Positions 7,530 through 50,654 are shown, counted from the first letter of the stretch. The stretch is DNA of 64,000 bases from Candidatus Omnitrophota bacterium (GCA_903860135.1 CAIOPG010000006.1:21117-85116); one strand, 5' to 3'. The notes: generated from the sequence alone by a model not told the origin. Numbers and translations: made by a program.

Positions 7530-9182
7530 ATGAACCGGCCTGTTTTTTCATGGTTGACGGTGAGATCTTTTCAGATCGGGCTTATTGCCCTCGGGTTGGT
7601 GTTGCGCTGCATTCATTACGTCGAGAACCGCTCGTTCTGGCAGGATGAGCTATGCCTGGCGCTGAGCATTGTCAACCGTTCGTTCACGGAAATATTCCAT
7701 AACACCCTTCTTTTTCCTGATTTTGCCCAAGCACCGCTGTTGTTTCAATTCATGGTAAAGATCTTTGCCGGTGTGTTCGGCAACAATGAAATGGCACTCC
7801 GGTTTTTTCCGTTTGTGACCGGGGTCGCCGCGCTTTTCCTTGCCCGGCGTTTTTTTAATCGCCTGCTGGCACCCATCCCTGCCACCCTGGCGCTAGGCCT
7901 TTTCGCCCTGGCCGAACCGCTTGTTTATTTTTCAGCAGAACTCAAACCGTACGGCGTTGATGTTTTTGCGGCGTTGTTGGTGTATGAAATGTTTTTTGCC
8001 TTGAAGGAACGCTGGACATTGCGGCATTTGGCTGTTTTTATGGCGGGTGGAGCCTTGGTGATCTGGCTGTCGAATGCCATGCTCTTTATTCTTGCCGGAG
8101 CAGGGCTTGTGTTCGGCCTTGATCATCTGAAGCGGCAGGAATGGTCTAAAGTGCGTCAGCTGGCGATGGCTTATGGTCTATGGCTGGTTAGTTTTTTAAT
8201 CTTGTACAAGGTTTCGTTGAGCGGGATGCTCAATCATGACCTGGTGAGGAACTGGCGTCTGGCAGGCGGGTTTTCGCCCGAACCTGCGTTCTCGTTGGGC
8301 TGGCTGGTGTGGATCGCCAAGGCTTTTCTGGATATGTTCCGTTCACCCTTAGGGCTCGGCTGGACGGGGTTGATGGCGGTCTTCTTCTTCTGCGGTTGCT
8401 GGTTTATTTATCGCCGGGACAGGTTGCTTCTGTGGCTATTAATGGCACCGCTCTTGCTGGTGTTGTCGGCTGGTGCTTTCGACAAGTACCCCTTCTTTGA
8501 ACGACTAGTTCTTTTCCTTGTGCCCGCCGTGCTTGTCATCCTAGCTGAGGGTGTCTGTGGCGTTGCTTTTTCCAGGGTCTGGCAGGGGCGGGCCTGGGGG
8601 TCATGGATCGTTATAGCCGCTGTCCTGTGGTATCCTGTGTCGGCGGCGGCCTGGCAGGCGGTGCATCCGCGCGGGCATGAAGATAACCGTGCGGCCATGC
8701 AGTACCTGACAGATCATTACCGCCCAGGTGACATGGTGGCGATAAGCCCTCAAGCCCAGTATCCATTCTGGTATTACAGCCAGCGCATGGGGCTCACCAG
8801 CCGTTTGCCGATGCATCCGGCGGGGGCATCGGGAGAGCGCGTGACACCCGTGATCCAGCTGTTTCCTGATATTGTGCCTGAATCTGGGCAGGAGATGCTC
8901 GCGTTGCGCCAGACCCTCAGTGTGTATGATGCCGCCGGTTATTATCGTTCTTTCCGGCTGGCTGGGCGCTCGAGTGCCCCTTTGTTTGTCCCCGCGGCAT
9001 CGCCCGCGATCCTCAAAGGCATGGGCCGGGTATGGGTCTTCTTGTCGCATCACAATAATGCCCGTTACCCGTTATTTGTGGATCAGGTGTTTTCACGTGC
9101 CGGAGAGCGGCTGGATTACTTCGAACGGCCTGGTGTTTGTGTTGGCCTTTATGACGTTCCTTTGGCCGATAAGAAAAAGTAA
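7530..9182 (+). CDS. Polytopic GT-C glycosyltransferase of the ArnT/PMT (COG1807-like) family with a C-terminal periplasmic domain
   Basis: More than 10 predicted TM helices. A QDE motif lies in the first loop after TM1. Sits 1 nt after the GT2 stop. ATG at the MNRP codon was chosen over the upstream in-frame ATG at 7485, which overlaps the GT2 gene. Confidence 0.6.
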   Translation: MNRPVFSWLTVRSFQIGLIALGLVLRCIHYVENRSFWQDELCLALSIVNRSFTEIFHNTLLFPDFAQAPLLFQFMVKIFAGVFGNNEMALRFFPFVTGVAALFLARRFFNRLLAPIPATLALGLFALAEPLVYFSAELKPYGVDVFAALLVYEMFFALKERWTLRHLAVFMAGGALVIWLSNAMLFILAGAGLVFGLDHLKRQEWSKVRQLAMAYGLWLVSFLILYKVSLSGMLNHDLVRNWRLAGGFSPEPAFSLGWLVWIAKAFLDMFRSPLGLGWTGLMAVFFFCGCWFIYRRDRLLLWLLMAPLLLVLSAGAFDKYPFFERLVLFLVPAVLVILAEGVCGVAFSRVWQGRAWGSWIVIAAVLWYPVSAAAWQAVHPRGHEDNRAAMQYLTDHYRPGDMVAISPQAQYPFWYYSQRMGLTSRLPMHPAGASGERVTPVIQLFPDIVPESGQEMLALRQTLSVYDAAGYYRSFRLAGRSSAPLFVPAASPAILKGMGRVWVFLSHHNNARYPLFVDQVFSRAGERLDYFERPGVCVGLYDVPLADKKK

Positions 9183-9290: not shown

Positions 9291-9307
9291 TTCCTTTGTG
9301 AAGAAAG

Positions 9308-9414
9308 TCTAAGGGCAAACTACTTGAAAAAGTAGGGCGCAAAGCCGTGAGCCTGAACCCGTCGTGTTGCGGGAAGGTTGTCTGGTTGCCGATGTGAGTA
9401 CGTTAACTCACGGC
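9308..9414 (+). promoter_or_regulatory. c-di-GMP-I (GEMM) riboswitch aptamer candidate
   Basis: AAGGGCAAACuacuuGAAAAAaguagGGCGCAAAGCCgugaGCCUGAACC...GUUGCCGAUG closely parallels the Vibrio Vc2 aptamer GGGCAAACcauucGAAAgagugGGACGCAAAGCCuccgGCCUAAACC...GUUACCGAUGG. A GNRA-type hairpin is present. The outer stem gccgugag/cucacggc closes the element. Confidence 0.6.
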
Positions 9415-9446
9415 AAAACCCTTCGATCTTTTCGAAGGGTTTTTTC
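9415..9446 (+). terminator. Intrinsic terminator serving as the riboswitch expression platform
   Basis: Stem cccttcga/tcgaaggg (9419-9426 and 9432-9439), 5-nt loop, then a run of six T. Lies 54 nt upstream of the 9500 start codon. Confidence 0.7.
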
Positions 9447-9499
9447 ATTTCAGGGGGTTTCCCTGAGGTGGCGCCCTGCATGCATAGGAGGTCTGGCAT

Positions 9500-11140
9500 A
9501 TGGGGCGTTATTTATCGATAACCTTTGCGGCTACAGTCGCAATTATTTCTTTATTTCCTTTACATAATGTTGCGGCGAGGGAAGATATTCCTATGATGAT
9601 GCCGCAGGAACAACCCATGATGCCATTCCCTTATCAAATGCCCGTTAATCCTGGTGTGCCTGTGCCGGCAACGGGGTCTGTTGTGCCGTTGCCCGTGCCT
9701 GTGTTGCCCAAGGGGGATGCCCTGGTTGCCTGGATGGCGTCTAATGTCAGTTCCAAGACAGGCATGTTTTTCAGTTTTCAGGTCTTACCTGAAGAAAAAG
9801 CCGAGATCTACGGTGCCATGGGCGAGGCTTCTTCTGTGCCCGGGATCGTTGAACGCACCATTGTCGAAGAAGGGCTGGATATTTACGATGGCGCTGTCGG
9901 GCAGATCGCGTTGACCGTTGCCGGCGGGGAGGATAAATTAGCAGTGGCCAGGCATCAACTGGATGTGTACTGGTCAGGAAAATTGGAGAGCCTGATCAGT
10001 ATCCGGGCAGGGTATCCTAATTATAATTTTGTTTATGATCCCAAAGATCCGGAGGTCGTGACGTCGTTGCTGACAGACGAGGGCCGGCGCGGATTTATTT
10101 TTCGTATCATCAATGCCAATGGCAACTACCTGGTGCGGGATCCCTTGGACGGCAAGGAACGGATGGCGGGTTTCCCGGAAGCACCGGATCTACACTGGGA
10201 AGACTGGAAGCCGGTTGCCGGAGAGAATGCCTGGATCGTGATCGCGGCCATGCAGTTGTATCACAAAGAGTATTATAAAGCGGATGTGGATCAATACGTT
10301 GCGCCTGAAGGACCTGTCGAACTGCGCCTTGCCGAAGAATTGGCGCGTGCGGCCATGGTCCTGCAATCGGAGACCGGCGGCATAAGGATGGCACCGATAG
10401 GGACGTACCGTGAGAATGAATTTTATTCAACGTCCACCCAGGGCCAGTGGTGGTACAACCAGATTTCGACAGAGAATAATCTTTCCTGGTACAGCGCGTT
10501 CCGGATGCTGTACCGTGTGACCAGCAAAGAGATCTATCTCCAGGCGATGCAGAAGATGGCAGGTTTCTTCAAGCAGGTTTATGATCCGGTAACGCAGACT
10601 TTTTATCAGGGGATGACCTATAAAGCAGGTGTCTGGCAGGTGAACAGCTCGAATTTTGCGGTGGATGTGCAGACCTGGGGTATTTTATCGCTCGGCGCGG
10701 CTACCATTGAAGACTGGTTCGGAGAGGGCGTTGCCTATTCATTCTGGGCGAAGGCGCGGGAATATTCGGGCACCTGTAATGATCAAGGCTTATTGATGGG
10801 CGTGGGGTATACCAAAGAAAAAGGCCGTGTTTCTGTGGAGTGGAGCGCAGGGGCGATCATGGCGGCGCGTGAACTGGCGGTATTCTATCGTAATTCCCAT
10901 CGTGAACTGGCGCAGGCCGCGGGGCACGATGCGGAGCAGATGCGTGTCGGCATGGAATTACTGCGCCGCGACCTCCCGGGAGGCCAGTCTGCTTATGCCT
11001 ATTCATCCAAACGCGGCTGGATCCCTTTTGGCTGGAATTCGCATGACCCGCGTGTCGTCAGCCTGGCGTCGACCGGTTGGATGTTCTTTGTTGACAAGAA
11101 ATTTAATCCTTTTTGGCTCGATGGCAAAGGCCAGGACTGA
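9500..11140 (+). CDS. Secreted hypothetical protein with a Pro/Met-rich linker; possibly an (alpha/alpha)-barrel polysaccharide-active enzyme (weak)
   Basis: Signal peptide MGRYLSITFAATVAIISLFPLHNVAA. AGGAGG RBS. Trp/Tyr-rich motifs (WWYNQISTENNLSWY, AWIVIAAMQLY). No confident family assignment. Confidence 0.7.
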   Translation: MGRYLSITFAATVAIISLFPLHNVAAREDIPMMMPQEQPMMPFPYQMPVNPGVPVPATGSVVPLPVPVLPKGDALVAWMASNVSSKTGMFFSFQVLPEEKAEIYGAMGEASSVPGIVERTIVEEGLDIYDGAVGQIALTVAGGEDKLAVARHQLDVYWSGKLESLISIRAGYPNYNFVYDPKDPEVVTSLLTDEGRRGFIFRIINANGNYLVRDPLDGKERMAGFPEAPDLHWEDWKPVAGENAWIVIAAMQLYHKEYYKADVDQYVAPEGPVELRLAEELARAAMVLQSETGGIRMAPIGTYRENEFYSTSTQGQWWYNQISTENNLSWYSAFRMLYRVTSKEIYLQAMQKMAGFFKQVYDPVTQTFYQGMTYKAGVWQVNSSNFAVDVQTWGILSLGAATIEDWFGEGVAYSFWAKAREYSGTCNDQGLLMGVGYTKEKGRVSVEWSAGAIMAARELAVFYRNSHRELAQAAGHDAEQMRVGMELLRRDLPGGQSAYAYSSKRGWIPFGWNSHDPRVVSLASTGWMFFVDKKFNPFWLDGKGQD

Positions 11141-45496: not shown

Positions 45497-46120
45497 ATGG
45501 TCAGAATCAAGATTTGTGGTATTACGGATAAAGATGATGCTTTCAAGGCCGTCAAGTTCGGGGCCGATGCGCTGGGGTTTGTTTTTACAAAGAAAAGCCC
45601 GCGCTATGTGTCGCCGTCGCGCGCGCGCAATATCATTTCGATCCTCCCGCCGTTCATCACGATGGTGGGGGTGTTTGTGAACGAGCGTCAGGGTGCTGTC
45701 AATGACATCATTTCTTTTGCCGGACTGAATGCGGTTCAGCTGCATGGCGACGAGGATCCCCAGTATGTTAGCCGCCTGAAACGCGGCAACTGCCAGGTCA
45801 TCAAGGCCTTCAGGGTGGGGGCTGGTTTTGATTTCAGCAGCATCAATAAATATGATGTCAACGGCATCCTGTTTGATGCTTACCAGGACGATGCTTTTGG
45901 TGGTACAGGGAAAACGTTCAACTGGGAACTGCTCCGCCAGGCCGATATCAAAAAGCCGTATATTCTTTCGGGCGGATTGAACCAGGAAAATATCCTTGAG
46001 GCGGTGACGCTGTTGAAGCCGTATGCCGTGGATGTTTCCACCGGCGTAGAGGCCGAACCGGGAAAGAAAGATCATCGCAAGATGATGTCGTTCATCCAGA
46101 ATGCCAGGATAACCGTGTGA
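45497..46120 (+). CDS. trpF: Phosphoribosylanthranilate isomerase
   Basis: MVRIKICGIT N-terminus and a TIM-barrel PRAI. Confidence 0.85.
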   Translation: MVRIKICGITDKDDAFKAVKFGADALGFVFTKKSPRYVSPSRARNIISILPPFITMVGVFVNERQGAVNDIISFAGLNAVQLHGDEDPQYVSRLKRGNCQVIKAFRVGAGFDFSSINKYDVNGILFDAYQDDAFGGTGKTFNWELLRQADIKKPYILSGGLNQENILEAVTLLKPYAVDVSTGVEAEPGKKDHRKMMSFIQNARITV

Positions 46121-46149
46121 GATGAAAATCATCGTTTTTCGTCAGCCCT

Positions 46150-46178
46150 TGTTTTGTAAAAGTCCCGTATGTTATATT
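46150..46178 (+). promoter_or_regulatory. Putative extended -10 promoter (TTGTTT, 17-nt spacer, TGtTATATT)
   Basis: GTATGTTATATTTC at 46168-46180, the same motif as at the other three sites. Ends at the 5' end of the structured element. Confidence 0.3.
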
Positions 46179-46179
46179 T

Positions 46180-46351
46180 CTTATAGCCGATAAAGGTAAA
46201 CCCGGGGAAACCCGGGGACACAAAGCGACAGACCTAATGTGCGCCATCGGGTAGTTGGGTGAAGGTGTTGATGGGGTTTTGTGGTTGGCGTAAGATGGTG
46301 GCTGCGTTGCCGAAGCGCGAGGGGAGATTCCCCAGCTTTTATCGGCTATAG
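46180..46351 (+). promoter_or_regulatory. Second c-di-GMP-I (GEMM)-like structured RNA candidate, with no obvious downstream gene
   Basis: GGUAAACccgggGAAAcccgggGACACAAAGCgacagaCCUAAu...CGGGUAGuUgGG...GUUGAUGG parallels the Vc2 motif blocks. A 15-bp outer stem pairs cttatagccgataaa with tttatcggctataag. The insertion is larger than in the canonical aptamer. Confidence 0.45.
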
Positions 46352-46363
46352 TTGATCTTGAAA

Positions 46364-46394
46364 TAAAAAAGGGAGCCGTTTGGCTCCCTTTTTT
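46364..46394. terminator. Bidirectional intrinsic terminator (A-run, GC stem, T-run)
   Basis: aaaaaaGGGAGCCgtttGGCTCCCtttttt. Ends the + strand structured-RNA unit and the convergent - strand ompA/LysM gene. Confidence 0.75.
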
Positions 46395-46412
46395 GTGGTC
46401 AGGAATAATATT

Positions 46413-47423
46413 TTATTCGATCGGGATAATGATAACCGTGCCCTTTTTCAGCTTGTTGGGATTCTTGATGCGGTTCTGGTTGATCTCATAAAGATATTTC
46501 CAGCGGTTGCCGTTGCCCATCTCATTCTTGGCGATCTTCCAGAGGGAATCATTGGGCTGAATCGTGTATTCACGTGTTGAAACATTCGGAGCGGACTCCA
46601 GGTTTTCTTTCTGCTCCATCGTGAATTTGTTTGGATCCTGGTTTTCAACAACAGCATCGGCCGGGATCTGGTCGGCGGGGACATTGAATTCCTCGACTTC
46701 GGCGATCATGAACTGGGCGTTTCTGTCTTTCTGCATGCCGGCCAGATCTTTTACCGGGGCCACAGCATCGAGCTTGCCGCGGGAAACGATCTTGATGCGT
46801 TCTTCGGCGATGCCACTGCGCAACATATAACCCTTGACGGCATCACTGCGTTTCTTGCCCAGCTTGAGGTTGTATTCATCTGAACCGCGCGCATCGCAAT
46901 TGCCTGTAATAAGGATGGATGCTTCGGGATTTTTCTCGAGCGTCTTTACCGCTTTGCTCAGGATAGGGATGTGGTCATCGCGCAATTCCGCTTTGTTGTA
47001 ATCAAAGTAAATTTTGACATTCCGGATGATCTTTTTAATGAGCAGCGATGCTTTGGGAGCAGCTGCCTGGGGTTCCACCGGTTTGACTTCCTCATTGTTC
47101 TGTCCATCATTGGCTTGGTAGTCATAGATCACTTTAAGTACATAAACGTAGCCACGGTTGCCCCAGTCTTTCTTGACTGAACCAGCCTGTTTGGGCCACC
47201 ACCAGAAACCGCCGCGGGCATCCTTCACCGGAGCCGGTAAGGCATCGGTGGGCCACCAGCTGAAGCGTTGCTGAAGGACCTTTAAATCACCGTCGCGCTT
47301 TGCCTCGCGCGCCGCCTTGGTAACAAACTGCGCATGGGCGGTGGTTGGCAGTGTCAGTACGGCTGCAAAAACCGTCAGGCATACCAATAAAACATTGCGG
47401 GAAAAACTGGAACTTTTGTTCAT
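46413..47423 (-). CDS. OmpA-family protein with a C-terminal LysM domain
   Basis: Signal peptide MNKSSSFSRNVLLVCLTVFAAVLTLPTTAHA. OmpA_C motif NCDARGSDEYNLKLGKKRSDAVKGYM. LysM (YTIQPNDSLWKIA...GTVIIIP). The start is chosen at the MNKSSS codon. Confidence 0.8.
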   Translation of the reverse strand: MNKSSSFSRNVLLVCLTVFAAVLTLPTTAHAQFVTKAAREAKRDGDLKVLQQRFSWWPTDALPAPVKDARGGFWWWPKQAGSVKKDWGNRGYVYVLKVIYDYQANDGQNNEEVKPVEPQAAAPKASLLIKKIIRNVKIYFDYNKAELRDDHIPILSKAVKTLEKNPEASILITGNCDARGSDEYNLKLGKKRSDAVKGYMLRSGIAEERIKIVSRGKLDAVAPVKDLAGMQKDRNAQFMIAEVEEFNVPADQIPADAVVENQDPNKFTMEQKENLESAPNVSTREYTIQPNDSLWKIAKNEMGNGNRWKYLYEINQNRIKNPNKLKKGTVIIIPIE

Positions 47424-47524
47424 AAGAACCCCTTTGATGATATTTAAAATATAAGATAGGTTTGATAATATCATATTTTCAAGAAAGCGGAATAAAAGTT
47501 TTGGTTTTGTGGTATAAGAGGAGT

Positions 47525-48061
47525 ATGGATTTTCAACAAGCATGGGAAGAAACCCTGAAAAATACACAGATCGTGCGCCGGCGTGTTTCCTCTTTACATA
47601 CGTTCGACGATACCCGTGTGCCGTATATGTTTTTATCCCCTTCTTTAATCAACGACGGGGATACGGTTGTGCGTAAAGGGGAAGTGGTGGTGCAGAAGCC
47701 GTCGTTGATCCTTCCTCCCAATATGCCCCGTTTTGACGGTTTTGATTTCGGGCAGGAAGCGGATGCGGATCAGGGGGCGGTCGTCAGTTTTCTCATGATG
47801 CGCGGCATATCTTTCCCTTCGATGAAATACAACAATACAACGCATTCCCTTGATGTTTTTGAGGGTGGGATTGACCGTGCGGTGTCATTCTTTGCCAATC
47901 AACTTGAGCGTGAGGAAAATGTGTCCTGCGGCCTTGTCACGGGTCATGAAGAAACCTGGCCTTTTTCCATCCTTATTTTTATTTGTGCCCAGGTCGCGCG
48001 CAATAGTGAATTTGACCTTAATCGCCTGATGGACGATTATCGCCGCCATCATCCAGACTAA
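47525..48061 (+). CDS. Hypothetical cytoplasmic protein
   Basis: ORF with an AGAGGAG RBS. No recognisable motifs. Confidence 0.4.
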   Translation: MDFQQAWEETLKNTQIVRRRVSSLHTFDDTRVPYMFLSPSLINDGDTVVRKGEVVVQKPSLILPPNMPRFDGFDFGQEADADQGAVVSFLMMRGISFPSMKYNNTTHSLDVFEGGIDRAVSFFANQLEREENVSCGLVTGHEETWPFSILIFICAQVARNSEFDLNRLMDDYRRHHPD

Positions 48062-48077
48062 TTATATAGGGAGATCC

Positions 48078-50654
48078 ATGCAACGCATTCTTCAGGTGAT
48101 AATCGCTGGATGTATTCTTTTTCTGGCTTCAATAGCCGGAGCCGATGTCCAGAGTTTCACGCTCGATAACGGACTGACGGTGCTTGTTACCGAAATGCCA
48201 TCATCCCCGGTGGCGGCTGTCTATGTTTGGGTTAAGACGGGAGCCGCCAATGAAGGGCAGTTCATCGGCAGTGGGATCACGCATTTTGTGGAACACATGG
48301 TTTTCAAAGGCACAGCCCGGCGTGCGGCAGGAGTTATTCCTGAAGAGGCGCGCGCCATGGGCGGGTATATCAATGCGTCAACGGGTTATGATCATACGTC
48401 GTATATCCTGAGTGTGCCTCCAGAGAAACTGTCCGGTGCCTTTGACCTTCTTTCGGATATGGTGATGAAGCCTGCGTTCGATCCTATTGAATTGGAGCGC
48501 GAGCGTGAGGTCATTATCAAGGAAATGCGGATGCTCCGTGACAAGCCTGACCGTCGGCTCAATGAGCTGGTTTACAGCACGGTTTATCATGTTCATCCGT
48601 ATCAATTTTCGATCATCGGCAGGGAAGATGTCTTTCTTACGCTTCAATGCGCGGATCTTCAGGAATATCATCGCCAGCTTTATGTCCCCAACAACATGAT
48701 CATCGCTGTTGCCGGAGGTGTCCGGGCAGAGGAGGTCGTTGCGCTTGTTAAAAACTTCTTTGATGGTTATCCGGCGCGGTCGTTTCCGTTGAGGAATTTG
48801 CCGCAGGAGCCTGAACAGATCAGCCAAAGAACTGTTGCGGAGGCGTATCCCACAGAGTTGACGCGCGTTATGATGGCTTATCAGGGCGTCCCTTTGCTTG
48901 ACCGCGATCTTTATGCGCTTGATGTGCTGGCCATGGCGATGGGCGAGGGAGAAAGCTCCCGTCTTTATCAGGAGCTTTACAAGCAACGCCGGCTGGTCGA
49001 ATCTATATCGGCAGGCAATTACACACCGCAGGATCGCGGGTTCTTTGAGATTTCATTGATGGTCAAAGGGCAGGATCCGGCGGTGGCTGTATCTGCCGTC
49101 GAGTCTATGGTCGCGCGCGTGAAAAAACAGGGGCTTTTTCCCGATGAGCTCAACAAGGTCAAGCGGCAGGTGGTGGCGGATAATATTTATGAACGCCAGA
49201 CCGCCGAAGGGATGGCCTGGAAGTCAGCGGCGGATCTTGCGTTCACGGGAGACAAGGATTTCTCGGCGCACTACATCCAGGGGATTCGCGCGGTTACGAC
49301 GGAAGATATCAGGCGCGTGGCCGTTCGTTATTTGATACCGTCGCACCTGAATGTTGTGACCCTGAAACCTGATGTTAAAGAAGGTTCATTAAAGGTGGCT
49401 GAGGTACCGACGGCGACTGATATAGATAAGATCGTTTTGCCTAATGGGCTTGTCCTTCTTCTCAAGGAAGATCACACCCTGCCGCTGGTTTCTGTCAATG
49501 CCGTCTTTAATGGCGGGATGCGCCTAGAGACCCTCGAGAAGAATGGTTTAACGTCCTTGTTGGGTGCGGTATGGGATAAGGGGCTTCCGGGGGCGTCTGC
49601 CATGACGATCGCCAACGCCATCGAGTCGCGTGGGGCTTCTTTATCAAGCTATGCCGGGCGCAACAGCATCGGCCTTGGCATGACGTTCCTGCGCGAAGAC
49701 ATGCCATTGATGATGGGGTATTTCGAGAAGTTTATCACGGGTCCTTCTTTCCCGCCCGATGAGATCGCCAAGGCCAGGGAAGAGTTGCGGACGGCGCTGA
49801 TCGAGCGTAAGGACAATATCATGCAGATATCATCGCGCGCCCTTATAGAGGATCTTTATCAAACACATCCTTTTCGCTTAGACGGCCTTGGTTCGGCGGA
49901 AAGCCTTGGGCGCGTTGCACGGACCGATATCCTTGATGTTTTTCATCGATGCGTACGACCGGACAATGGTGTTATCGCCGTATTTGGGGATATTGACAAG
50001 GCGGCGGTCCGTCGGGATATTGAACGCCGTTTGGGCATGTTAAAGCCTGGCAAACTTGAATTACCTCTATTTACAGAGGCCCCAGGGATTGCCTTGCGGG
50101 TTCGGGATATTTCTTCGCCAAAGAACCAGGCCGCGGTGCTTTTTGGATTTCGTGGACCATGGATCGCCTCGCCAGATCGTTATGCCACCGAGGTGATGGT
50201 AAACATTCTCGGTTCTTCGCTGGGAGGCCGGATATTTAAACGGGTGCGCGATGAGCTTGGGAAGGCTTACGCGGTCAGCGGCGGGATCACCTCCGGGGTT
50301 GATGCCGGGATGATTAGTTTTTTTGCCTTGACCAGCAATGAAGGGATCCCTTTGGTAAGGGCGATCATGGAAGAAGAGTTTGCGCGTATCCGACGTGAAT
50401 CTGTGTCGGCACAGGAGCTCGCCGCGGCCAAGATCTACCTGCAAAGTGCCATGGCCAGAAGTCAGCAGGCAATCGGGGCACAGTCTGCGACGCGGGCGGG
50501 GGATGAGCTTGCAGGGCTTGGCTATGCCAATGCCGCTCACTATGCCGAGCGCATTGCCGCCGTGACGGCCAACGACGTGGTTCAGGCGGCCATGGTCTAT
50601 CTGGATATTTCCAGCGCGGCGTTAACCGTCGTCCATGCCGCTGATAAAAAGTAA
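48078..50654 (+). CDS. Secreted tandem M16-family zinc peptidase (pitrilysin-like)
   Basis: Signal peptide. Inverted zinc motif HFVEHMVFKGT (HxxEH) in the first unit. Second M16-like unit in the C-terminal half. Confidence 0.85.
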   Translation: MQRILQVIIAGCILFLASIAGADVQSFTLDNGLTVLVTEMPSSPVAAVYVWVKTGAANEGQFIGSGITHFVEHMVFKGTARRAAGVIPEEARAMGGYINASTGYDHTSYILSVPPEKLSGAFDLLSDMVMKPAFDPIELEREREVIIKEMRMLRDKPDRRLNELVYSTVYHVHPYQFSIIGREDVFLTLQCADLQEYHRQLYVPNNMIIAVAGGVRAEEVVALVKNFFDGYPARSFPLRNLPQEPEQISQRTVAEAYPTELTRVMMAYQGVPLLDRDLYALDVLAMAMGEGESSRLYQELYKQRRLVESISAGNYTPQDRGFFEISLMVKGQDPAVAVSAVESMVARVKKQGLFPDELNKVKRQVVADNIYERQTAEGMAWKSAADLAFTGDKDFSAHYIQGIRAVTTEDIRRVAVRYLIPSHLNVVTLKPDVKEGSLKVAEVPTATDIDKIVLPNGLVLLLKEDHTLPLVSVNAVFNGGMRLETLEKNGLTSLLGAVWDKGLPGASAMTIANAIESRGASLSSYAGRNSIGLGMTFLREDMPLMMGYFEKFITGPSFPPDEIAKAREELRTALIERKDNIMQISSRALIEDLYQTHPFRLDGLGSAESLGRVARTDILDVFHRCVRPDNGVIAVFGDIDKAAVRRDIERRLGMLKPGKLELPLFTEAPGIALRVRDISSPKNQAAVLFGFRGPWIASPDRYATEVMVNILGSSLGGRIFKRVRDELGKAYAVSGGITSGVDAGMISFFALTSNEGIPLVRAIMEEEFARIRRESVSAQELAAAKIYLQSAMARSQQAIGAQSATRAGDELAGLGYANAAHYAERIAAVTANDVVQAAMVYLDISSAALTVVHAADKK

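Follow-up and report, generated by a model that had tools for sequence, protein, structure and literature searches.

A class I cyclic di-GMP riboswitch leader behind trpF in a Candidatus Omnitrophota genome, probably stranded by a rearrangement

What does a riboswitch do at a place where no gene follows it? This question is raised by a stretch of 64,000 nt from Candidatus Omnitrophota bacterium (GCA_903860135.1 CAIOPG010000006.1:21117-85116), hereafter called the window, whose coordinates are counted from its first base. Between trpF (45497-46120, + strand) and a convergent gene for a protein with OmpA and LysM domains (ompA-LysM, 46413-47423, - strand), an earlier note on this DNA had recognized a GEMM-like RNA (46150-46394) that lies between a promoter and a strong bidirectional terminator, and had proposed it to be either a small RNA responsive to cyclic di-GMP (c-di-GMP) or a switch that controls antisense read-through into the convergent gene. 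As that note had stated, no + strand open reading frame (ORF) follows the unit in the window, in which the terminator and then the convergent gene come next. Our analysis identifies the element as a canonical class I c-di-GMP (GEMM-I) aptamer, and we consider it probable that it represents a riboswitch leader stranded by a rearrangement, whose genes have been lost and whose terminator has been borrowed from the neighboring gene.

A search of the 64 kb with cmscan at the Rfam gathering thresholds gave three matches, namely a c-di-GMP-I riboswitch at 9304-9393, a tRNA and, on the + strand at 46186-46315, RF03167 (c-di-GMP-I-GGC) with 61.0 bits against a gathering score of 59 (E 6.2e-12), so that the proposed RNA was borne out by a covariance model. 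A permissive Rfam scan of 46100-46420 yielded nothing further credible. The score of the window element on RF01051 is masked by clan competition (clan CL00126), and orthologues that are 92-97% identical in the conserved blocks reach 66.5-67.2 bits on this model (gathering score 35), the other orthologues 64-72.5 bits. The matched region folds into a short P1 (46186-89 with 46311-12 and 46315-16), the P1a hairpin CCCGGG-GAAA-CCCGGG (46201-16, GAAA loop at 46207-10), which is closed by the pairs G46196-C46221 and U46197-A46220, and P1b (46224-34 with 46297-46308), where a tetraloop-receptor-like CCUAA (46233-37) stands opposite AAGAUGG (46292-98); the 3' blocks read AAGAUGG-UGG-CUGCGUU-GCCGAAG and span 46292-46315. 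P1b carries a distal extension (46240-46292) consisting of a 7-bp stem (46240-46 with 46286-92) around a 39-nt loop (46247-85) that is GU-rich and apparently unstructured. Four of the six sequence blocks by which the earlier note had recognized the element, GGUAAAC, CCCGGG-GAAA-CCCGGG, GGGACACAAAGC and GACCUAA, stood up to this assignment, whereas CGGGUAG and GUUGAUGG lie in the degenerate distal loop.

The nucleotides G20, A47 and C92 (Vc2 numbering), which contact the ligand in the Vc2 crystal structures, correspond in the cmscan alignment to G46195, unpaired and located before the first P1a pair, to A46222, which follows directly on the P1a closing pair, and to C46310 after P1b. All three are invariant across the 14 aligned sequences. 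In the same alignment, the aptamer pairing is kept in 99.4% of cells, above every slid and shuffled control, and compensatory changes are found at three P1a pairs, the closing pair of P1a being UA in six, UG in four and CG in four sequences. The proximal part of P1b is invariant and hence uninformative on covariation, which is partly because the pattern used to search metagenomes lay there.

Does the RF03167 match mean that the element belongs to a variant class with another specificity? The 'GGC' in the name of this family presumably denotes positions 20, 47 and 92. Its consensus GACGCGAAGC differs from the RF01051 consensus GACGCAAAGC exactly at position 47, at which the window (GACACAAAGC) has A. 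Moreover, the labels of the orthologues swap between RF01051 and RF03167 (50-60 bits) without pattern, and seven of the nine RF03167 calls fall under the gathering score of that model. Identity as a 'GGC variant' was thus rejected, and the label is an artefact because the two models compete. Similarly, a 3',3'-cyclic GMP-AMP (cGAMP) riboswitch (GEMM-Ib) could be ruled out, since position 20 is G46195 and invariant in the family; the cGAMP type is reported (Kellenberger 2015, Nelson 2015) to carry A rather than G at this position.

To place the element in its family, relatives were collected via the contigs of trpF homologues and via metagenome contigs scanned for a conserved 16-mer of the aptamer. 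Most 16-mer matches are due to chance. Of 120 loci, a filter retained 10: seven new copies (L106, L123, L152, L156, L162, L181 and L199), two already in hand (L118 and L128) and one chance match that was dropped (L212). The resulting family comprises 16 loci including the window, or about 13 distinct sequences, with trpF proteins 45-90% identical to that of the window; the unit thus occurs in 15 other loci of Candidatus Omnitrophota (about 12 further distinct sequences), besides the contigs L001 and L089, which match the window. These relatives share a promoter of the form TTG(Y)(Y)N, about 18 nt of unconserved spacer and TGnTATATT, which ends 6-8 nt before the structured RNA. There follow a 5' arm (A/G)AGCCGA(U)AAAGG, the aptamer with a P1b extension of 50-90 nt, the P1 3' strand UGCCGAAG(C/U)GCGA, a hairpin whose sequence varies, and a 3' arm CUUU(U)AUCGGC. 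In every relative, an AU-rich linker and then a GC-rich terminator (T2) come after the 3' arm.

The promoter in the window is of the sigma-70 type (46149-46178, + strand), with a -35 hexamer TTGTTT (46149-54), an 18-nt spacer and an extended -10 element TGtTATATT (46170-78). Although a simple promoter scan did not list it, because its -35 hexamer matches the consensus at just three of six positions, the TTG-N-TGnTATATT footprint is invariant in 16 of 16 homologous loci with the spacer free to vary, in agreement with the extended -10 promoter that the earlier note had placed here. Judged from the spacing, transcription is predicted to start near A46185/G46186, and an RNA of about 210 nt (46185 to about 46393) would result.

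On its upstream side, the element is preceded by the + strand cluster aroA-trpG-trpD-trpC-trpF (Pfam assignments), of which trpF (PRAI, E 1.6e-47) is the last gene, and trpF lies directly upstream in all 14 homologous loci for which upstream sequence is available, down to an amino-acid identity of 45%. This raises an alternative, in which the element would be reached by trp transcripts and its fold, depending on the ligand, would govern how stable the 3' end of the upstream mRNA is, as has been proposed for Vc2. The constant trpF-element order in the face of a varying downstream neighbor would suit such a role, as would the finding that most loci have no terminator between trpF and the element, and a 3' riboswitch that stabilizes upstream RNA provides a precedent (bioRxiv 10.1101/617340). 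A dedicated promoter conserved between trpF and the aptamer would, however, be needless for a pure element of the 3' untranslated region. The window additionally contains a weak hairpin, GAUGA-AAA-UCAUC followed by GUUUUU (46121-46139), directly 3' of the trpF stop codon (46118-46120); it may act as a leaky terminator of the trp operon, and relatives do not have it at the equivalent positions. We also know of no link between c-di-GMP and tryptophan synthesis. Taken together, a function as the 3'-end element of the trp operon appears very unlikely to us.

How could ligand binding be read out by this RNA? The minimum free energy (MFE) fold of 46178-46400 has a z-score of -6.5 and is dominated by the terminator and by an outer helix, P0, in which a 5' arm (46181-46197, UUAUAGCCGAUAAAGGU) pairs with a 3' arm (46335-46351, GCUUUUAUCGGCUAUAG) through 17 pairs, three of them G-U. 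About 13 bp of this helix (46185-97 with 46335-47) lie within the predicted transcript, so the closing outer stem already described in the earlier note amounts to 13-17 bp in the window. A homologous duplex of 10-17 bp with energies of -16 to -23 kcal/mol is found in 16 of 16 loci, and the RNAalifold consensus picks it as well. Pair counts point in the same direction: four sequences have G in place of A at column 17, with the partner changing from U to C in the L123/L199/L156 group (in the shifted register used by RNAalifold) and a G-U pair kept in L086; the base of the stem changes from U-A to G-C; and L218 and L220 show a coordinated 1-bp deletion on both strands. P0 always takes in the P1 5' strand GCCG and G20, and in several lineages the first P1a pairs also; in the window its 5' arm holds GCCG (46186-89), the A-rich junction, G46195 and the lowest P1a bases, G46196 and U46197. 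With the P1 5' strand, G20 and the A-rich junction tied up in it, P0 excludes the ligand-binding fold and vice versa.

In nearest-neighbor energies, the P0 fold lies 14-35 kcal/mol below the secondary structure of the aptamer across the family and 28 kcal/mol below it in the window. P0 is thus far more stable in secondary-structure terms, and the choice between both folds would therefore have to fall during transcription. From this we infer a switch under kinetic control: if ligand binds before the 3' arm has been transcribed, P1 would stay closed and the 3' arm single-stranded, while without ligand the 3' arm would displace the P1 3' strand and P0 would form. The very slow ligand release of Vc2 fits a switch of this kind. 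Between the aptamer and the P0 3' arm sits the small variable hairpin (46321-46333, GGGGA-GAU-UCCCC), which has a counterpart of variable sequence at this position in every homologue. It had been flagged by a motif scan and was considered, together with the U-rich 3' arm, as a first regulated terminator resembling T1 of the Bc1 riboswitch; this candidate was rejected, since its stem has just 4-5 bp and its poor U tract lies partly inside alternative stems. In a possible extended form of the hairpin (AAGC/GCUU), two clades differ in a correlated way, one having C-G where the other has U-A, which counts as a single event.

The downstream side of the relatives tells what the unit has probably been used for. 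T2 possesses, in most lineages, a covarying stem and a conserved 9-nt loop AGCAGUAUC. It stands about 30-55 nt after the P0 3' arm (L083, L090, L092, L106, L181, L218 and L220), its stems being of the types GGGGCCC, GACCCCC, GGCCCCC and GCCCCC. The loop and first stem bases of T2 repeat UAUCGG of the P0 3' arm, and a conserved loop is unusual for a terminator. After T2, 10 of the 13 relatives with enough downstream sequence carry a gene for a protein of 90-95 aa (45-69% identity), which we call the CxxCxxCC protein after its motif CxxCGACCG..DPCE..SWPGDE.CGYK (L094 3431-3703, L092 2494-2778, L162, L152, L218, L220, L090, L106, L181 and L156). The gene starts 5-15 nt past the T run in four loci and about 30 to 350 nt after T2 in the others, in four of those behind palindromic repeats. 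Related single copies of such repeats lie between T2 and the CxxCxxCC gene in several lineages (L181, L220, L123, L199 and L156) and are absent from the window; at L216 3500-3881, a palindromic repeat of about 78 nt (AGGATTCTTTACCC..CCCCTAAGACTACCTGGGGCTCCTACAGAGCCCCGGAGTCTTAGGGG..) forms 4.9 tandem copies with 99% identity and looks like an Omnitrophota element of the REP/MITE type (repetitive extragenic palindrome/miniature inverted-repeat transposable element).

No Pfam family matches the CxxCxxCC protein, and NCBIfam gives only a non-significant hint to the YcgN cysteine-cluster proteins (E 0.19); it appears to be an uncharacterized cysteine-cluster protein linked to c-di-GMP. Because the CxxCxxCC gene follows the unit's own terminator in 10 loci, the ancestral state would be that of an ordinary 5' leader riboswitch, a reading that derives from gene order. 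The gene-less arrangement described in the earlier note, which had itself named an ordinary ORF in syntenic genomes as refuting evidence, is hence not how the element was designed. As to the mechanism of such a leader, we asked whether the distal P1b domain could pair with the 5' arm of T2 and so act as an antiterminator. L090 does contain a 9-bp match, yet across 14 lineages the energies of cognate duplexes are no better than those of non-cognate ones, and this candidate was rejected. T2 might also be engaged by the free 3' arm or by the linker, and its conserved loop (UAUCGG) by the 5' arm; these candidates were likewise rejected, since complementarity exists in some lineages only.

If the ancestral unit was a leader, where did the window copy lose its genes? 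Homology to the riboswitch unit ends at about 46351-57, and from TGAAATAAAAAAGGGAGCC on the window matches the 3' flank of ompA-LysM in five metagenome-assembled genomes (MAGs), which places the rearrangement breakpoint at 46352-46357. The terminator of the window (46365-46394) consists of a stem GGGAGCC-GUUU-GGCUCCC (46371-77/46382-88, loop GUUU) between A6 (46365-70) and T6 (46389-94), as read directly from the sequence. A simple motif scan of the window did not list this terminator, probably because the A and T runs lengthen the stem so that no T tail is left. The same GGGAGCC-N4-GGCTCCC hairpin with its TTTTTTATTTCA tail follows ompA-LysM in L003, L004, L005, L006 and L011, MAGs that have no riboswitch there. 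The strong bidirectional terminator noted earlier is thus present, but it belongs to ompA-LysM and not to the unit, as it stands beside that gene in five MAGs without the riboswitch. The ompA-LysM stop codon lies 19 nt past its T run.

The protein encoded by ompA-LysM has hundreds of close homologues, the named ones being labelled Candidatus Omnitrophota, and the exact protein and exact DNA also occur on public contigs. Among 80 other ompA-LysM loci fetched, trpF was beside the gene in none, and an Rfam scan of the 18 closest loci found a GEMM element adjoining it in none. All of the closest loci retain the upstream gene for a 199-aa protein and the M16 peptidase gene. The riboswitch element is therefore foreign to the ompA-LysM gene on the evidence of these comparisons. 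Independently of the trpF-linked unit and unrelated to it, the Omnitrophota MAG L014 contains a canonical c-di-GMP-I riboswitch (7897-7987, 72.2 bits) about 3.4 kb downstream of ompA-LysM on the same strand.

These data bear directly on the antisense proposal, according to which c-di-GMP would control read-through of the terminator and thereby an antisense RNA over ompA-LysM. The aptamer does face the 3' end of the convergent gene at a distance of about 100 nt, and in a published survey no riboswitch class was more enriched in antisense orientation than the c-di-GMP class (152 of 2706; PMC9943018). However, the terminator belongs to ompA-LysM and is conserved where the riboswitch is absent, no upstream segment competes with its 7-bp GC-rich stem and U6 tail, the ancestral platform downstream of P0 (linker and T2) is deleted, and the junction is seen in this lineage alone. 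The regulated read-through suggested by the earlier note hence found no support, and we regard an antisense-acting riboswitch as highly improbable.

Three related lineages are devoid of the CxxCxxCC gene, namely the window, L083/L222 and L086, the trpF proteins of the other two being 87-90% identical to that of the window. L083 keeps the linker and T2 and then continues with the operon (a 99-aa ORF, an M20 peptidase and DUF3108) that follows the CxxCxxCC gene in L094, and because this same downstream operon continues, L083 represents a clean deletion of the CxxCxxCC gene. In L086, the terminator is a different one, and behind it lie genes for an extracytoplasmic function (ECF) sigma factor and a vWA protein. 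Only in the window lineage, then, is there no + strand gene within reach. We propose a rearrangement that broke the unit a few bases past its P0 3' arm and brought the 3' end of ompA-LysM up to the break, in the course of which the linker, T2 and all downstream + strand genes were lost. Transcripts from the intact promoter would now stop at the bidirectional terminator of the neighbor, giving the RNA of about 210 nt that has no target in cis and hence presumably no gene-regulatory output there.

Is the stranded copy decaying? Between the three lineages, identity at four-fold degenerate sites in trpD, trpC and trpF has dropped to 35-39%, which amounts to saturation, yet in the conserved blocks of the element it is 92-97%, and 94-97% where the window is compared with its sister lineages; the window shows zero private changes in the 93 conserved-block columns examined. 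The distal P1b domain behaves differently. Among the six relatives compared, it is 60-95% identical (78-95% without L086) and contains a block GGCCCGUUAGCCC..GGCGGUUUGGGCC and a second hairpin; in the window, identity to the relatives is only 53-60%, about 25 nt net are deleted and both hairpins are gone. RNAalifold returned no structure for the distal domain, the alignment of which is too poor. Within the P1b extension of relatives (e.g. L090 2310-2385), the block GGCCCGUUAGCCCUUUGUGGCGGUUUGGGCC and the second hairpin are kept at 78-95% despite saturated synonymous sites. The distal domain is decayed in the window and partly diverged in L086, which are the two lineages without the ancestral T2. 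On one reading of this pattern, selection continued to act on the core when the periphery was no longer needed; on the other, the periphery decayed earlier and the rearrangement is recent. A comparison of L083 with L222, in which 5 of 276 unit positions differ as opposed to 9.3% at four-fold degenerate sites (P = 4e-7), indicates that the unit evolves about five times slower, a constraint that does not concern a true orphan, as a + strand operon lies 60 nt past the terminator of L083.

The contrast between core and periphery would fit another view of the locus, in which the core remained under purifying selection after all cis targets had been lost and only the dispensable P1b domain decayed, leaving either a free-standing c-di-GMP-gated RNA in a candidate phylum of nanobacteria or a ligand-dependent 3'-end module of the trp transcript; we consider this view as a whole possible but unlikely. 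In its free-standing form, the presence of ligand during transcription would decide whether the RNA becomes a closed rod held by P0 or opens up with its 3' arm exposed, and the promoter-aptamer-P0 core would be selected for a role without a downstream gene. Binding of the ligand may, for example, make the 3' arm and linker accessible to a pairing partner or a protein, or it may determine how stable the RNA is. Such a small RNA would explain a core free of private substitutions next to a distal domain that fell to 53-60% identity; promoter, P0 and terminator are all there and both RNA ends would lie in helices, and precedents exist in merRNA (PMC3627812) and the Vc2-containing small RNAs (bioRxiv 10.1101/617340). 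Yet most relatives have a gene after the unit, and L083 and L086, which are devoid of the CxxCxxCC gene, still have + strand genes past the terminator, so that no proven free-standing case is among them. The only sequences closer to the window differ from it by 0-1 nt and so do not date the junction, and as a c-di-GMP sponge of the kind proposed for merRNA the RNA would be ill suited, since P0 should close the pocket at equilibrium. Overall, we judge a selected free-standing small RNA to be a rather doubtful explanation.

We thus return to the riboswitch leader stranded by the rearrangement as the probable explanation, against which several points have to be weighed. The unblemished core next to a decayed distal domain could mean that the core is still under selection and is not a mere remnant. 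Promoter, start site and RNA are all predicted from sequence. With three candidate partners tried in the relatives, namely the distal P1b domain, the 5' arm, and the 3' arm together with the linker, no structure that competes with T2 was found. Moreover, the CxxCxxCC ORF was not found within the 64-kb window, which covers this part of the genome, and a copy elsewhere is possible. With no + strand ORF behind it, the window copy has no cis gene under a ligand-dependent platform and thus falls short of a complete riboswitch; what is left would be a well-preserved remnant or else an RNA that has a function of its own.

In the surroundings of the locus, two genes lie divergent from ompA-LysM: a 199-aa ORF without a Pfam match (47462-48061, +; the gene called on an identical contig encodes 178 aa) and an M16 peptidase gene (48078-50654, +). 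The 199-aa protein keeps its place beside ompA-LysM in the closest Omnitrophota loci (57-82% identity), and the three genes look like a stable gene neighborhood. The other GEMM element of the window (9304-9447) is an ordinary c-di-GMP-I riboswitch (RF01051, 65.6 bits) with a terminator-like hairpin and T run at about 9419-9447 and, 50 nt downstream, a 546-aa ORF (gene 9500-11140).

What does such a locus mean for annotation? A covariance-model match flanked by a promoter and a terminator is insufficient to call a regulatory small RNA, as synteny here shows a leader that lost its genes. If the stranded copy were expressed and responsive to its ligand, it would provide a natural experiment on an aptamer after gene loss. 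The family itself may merit a specialist look for its trpF linkage, its P0 helix that pairs G20, its P1b extension, the conserved T2 loop without a visible antiterminator and the CxxCxxCC protein.

We finally compared the element to systems already characterized. With Vc2 of Vibrio cholerae and RF01051 in general, it shares the two-hairpin aptamer, the GAAA tetraloop of P1a, the receptor-like CCUAA/AUGG motif of P1b, G20, A47 and C92 and a short bulged P1; it differs in the P1b extension of 50-90 nt and the long P0 that pairs the P1 5' strand and G20, both of which are traits of the family, and in the absence of a gene after the window copy. Bc1 of Bacillus thuringiensis resembles it in combining a class I aptamer and a long platform with a strong terminator that is not visibly unfolded by the ligand; in Bc1 the second terminator stays folded and masks the response, and riboswitches that do not regulate downstream genes have been discussed in this context (PMC11218506). 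Unlike Bc1, which has two true terminators and a downstream gene, the first hairpin of the window is too weak, P0 would be the switching helix and the terminator is borrowed.

The merRNA of Bdellovibrio bacteriovorus likewise contains a c-di-GMP-I aptamer in a transcript without a conserved downstream ORF and has been proposed to act as an RNA in its own right; it is 445 nt long, massively expressed and conserved only within Bdellovibrio (PMC3627812). The window copy resembles it in its predicted possession of an own promoter and a defined 3' end with no ORF downstream. A gene-less state conserved among relatives is, however, not what we find, as the same 10 of 13 informative relatives have a downstream gene; the window RNA is moreover predicted, and P0 should close the pocket in the mature RNA. 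The small RNAs that contain Vc2 and lie upstream of tfoY have the aptamer as their 3' end (bioRxiv 10.1101/617340), whereas the window RNA, as predicted from sequence, would have the aptamer at its 5' side and an intrinsic terminator at its 3' end. The survey of antisense riboswitches used a positional criterion only, and the window would fall under it as a riboswitch convergent to a gene within 500 nt (PMC9943018). Ligand-dependent read-through into the convergent gene in a conserved arrangement finds no support at the locus, which has no competitor structure and a junction absent from the other ompA-LysM loci examined; the arrangement is better described as the chance product of a rearrangement in one lineage, in which a constitutive terminator separates the riboswitch from the gene. 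The literature thus already contains c-di-GMP riboswitches that are orphans or lie antisense to a gene (PMC3627812, PMC9943018), while the trpF linkage, P0, the P1b extension, the T2 loop and the CxxCxxCC gene appear, as far as we checked, to be undescribed variations on the riboswitch theme.

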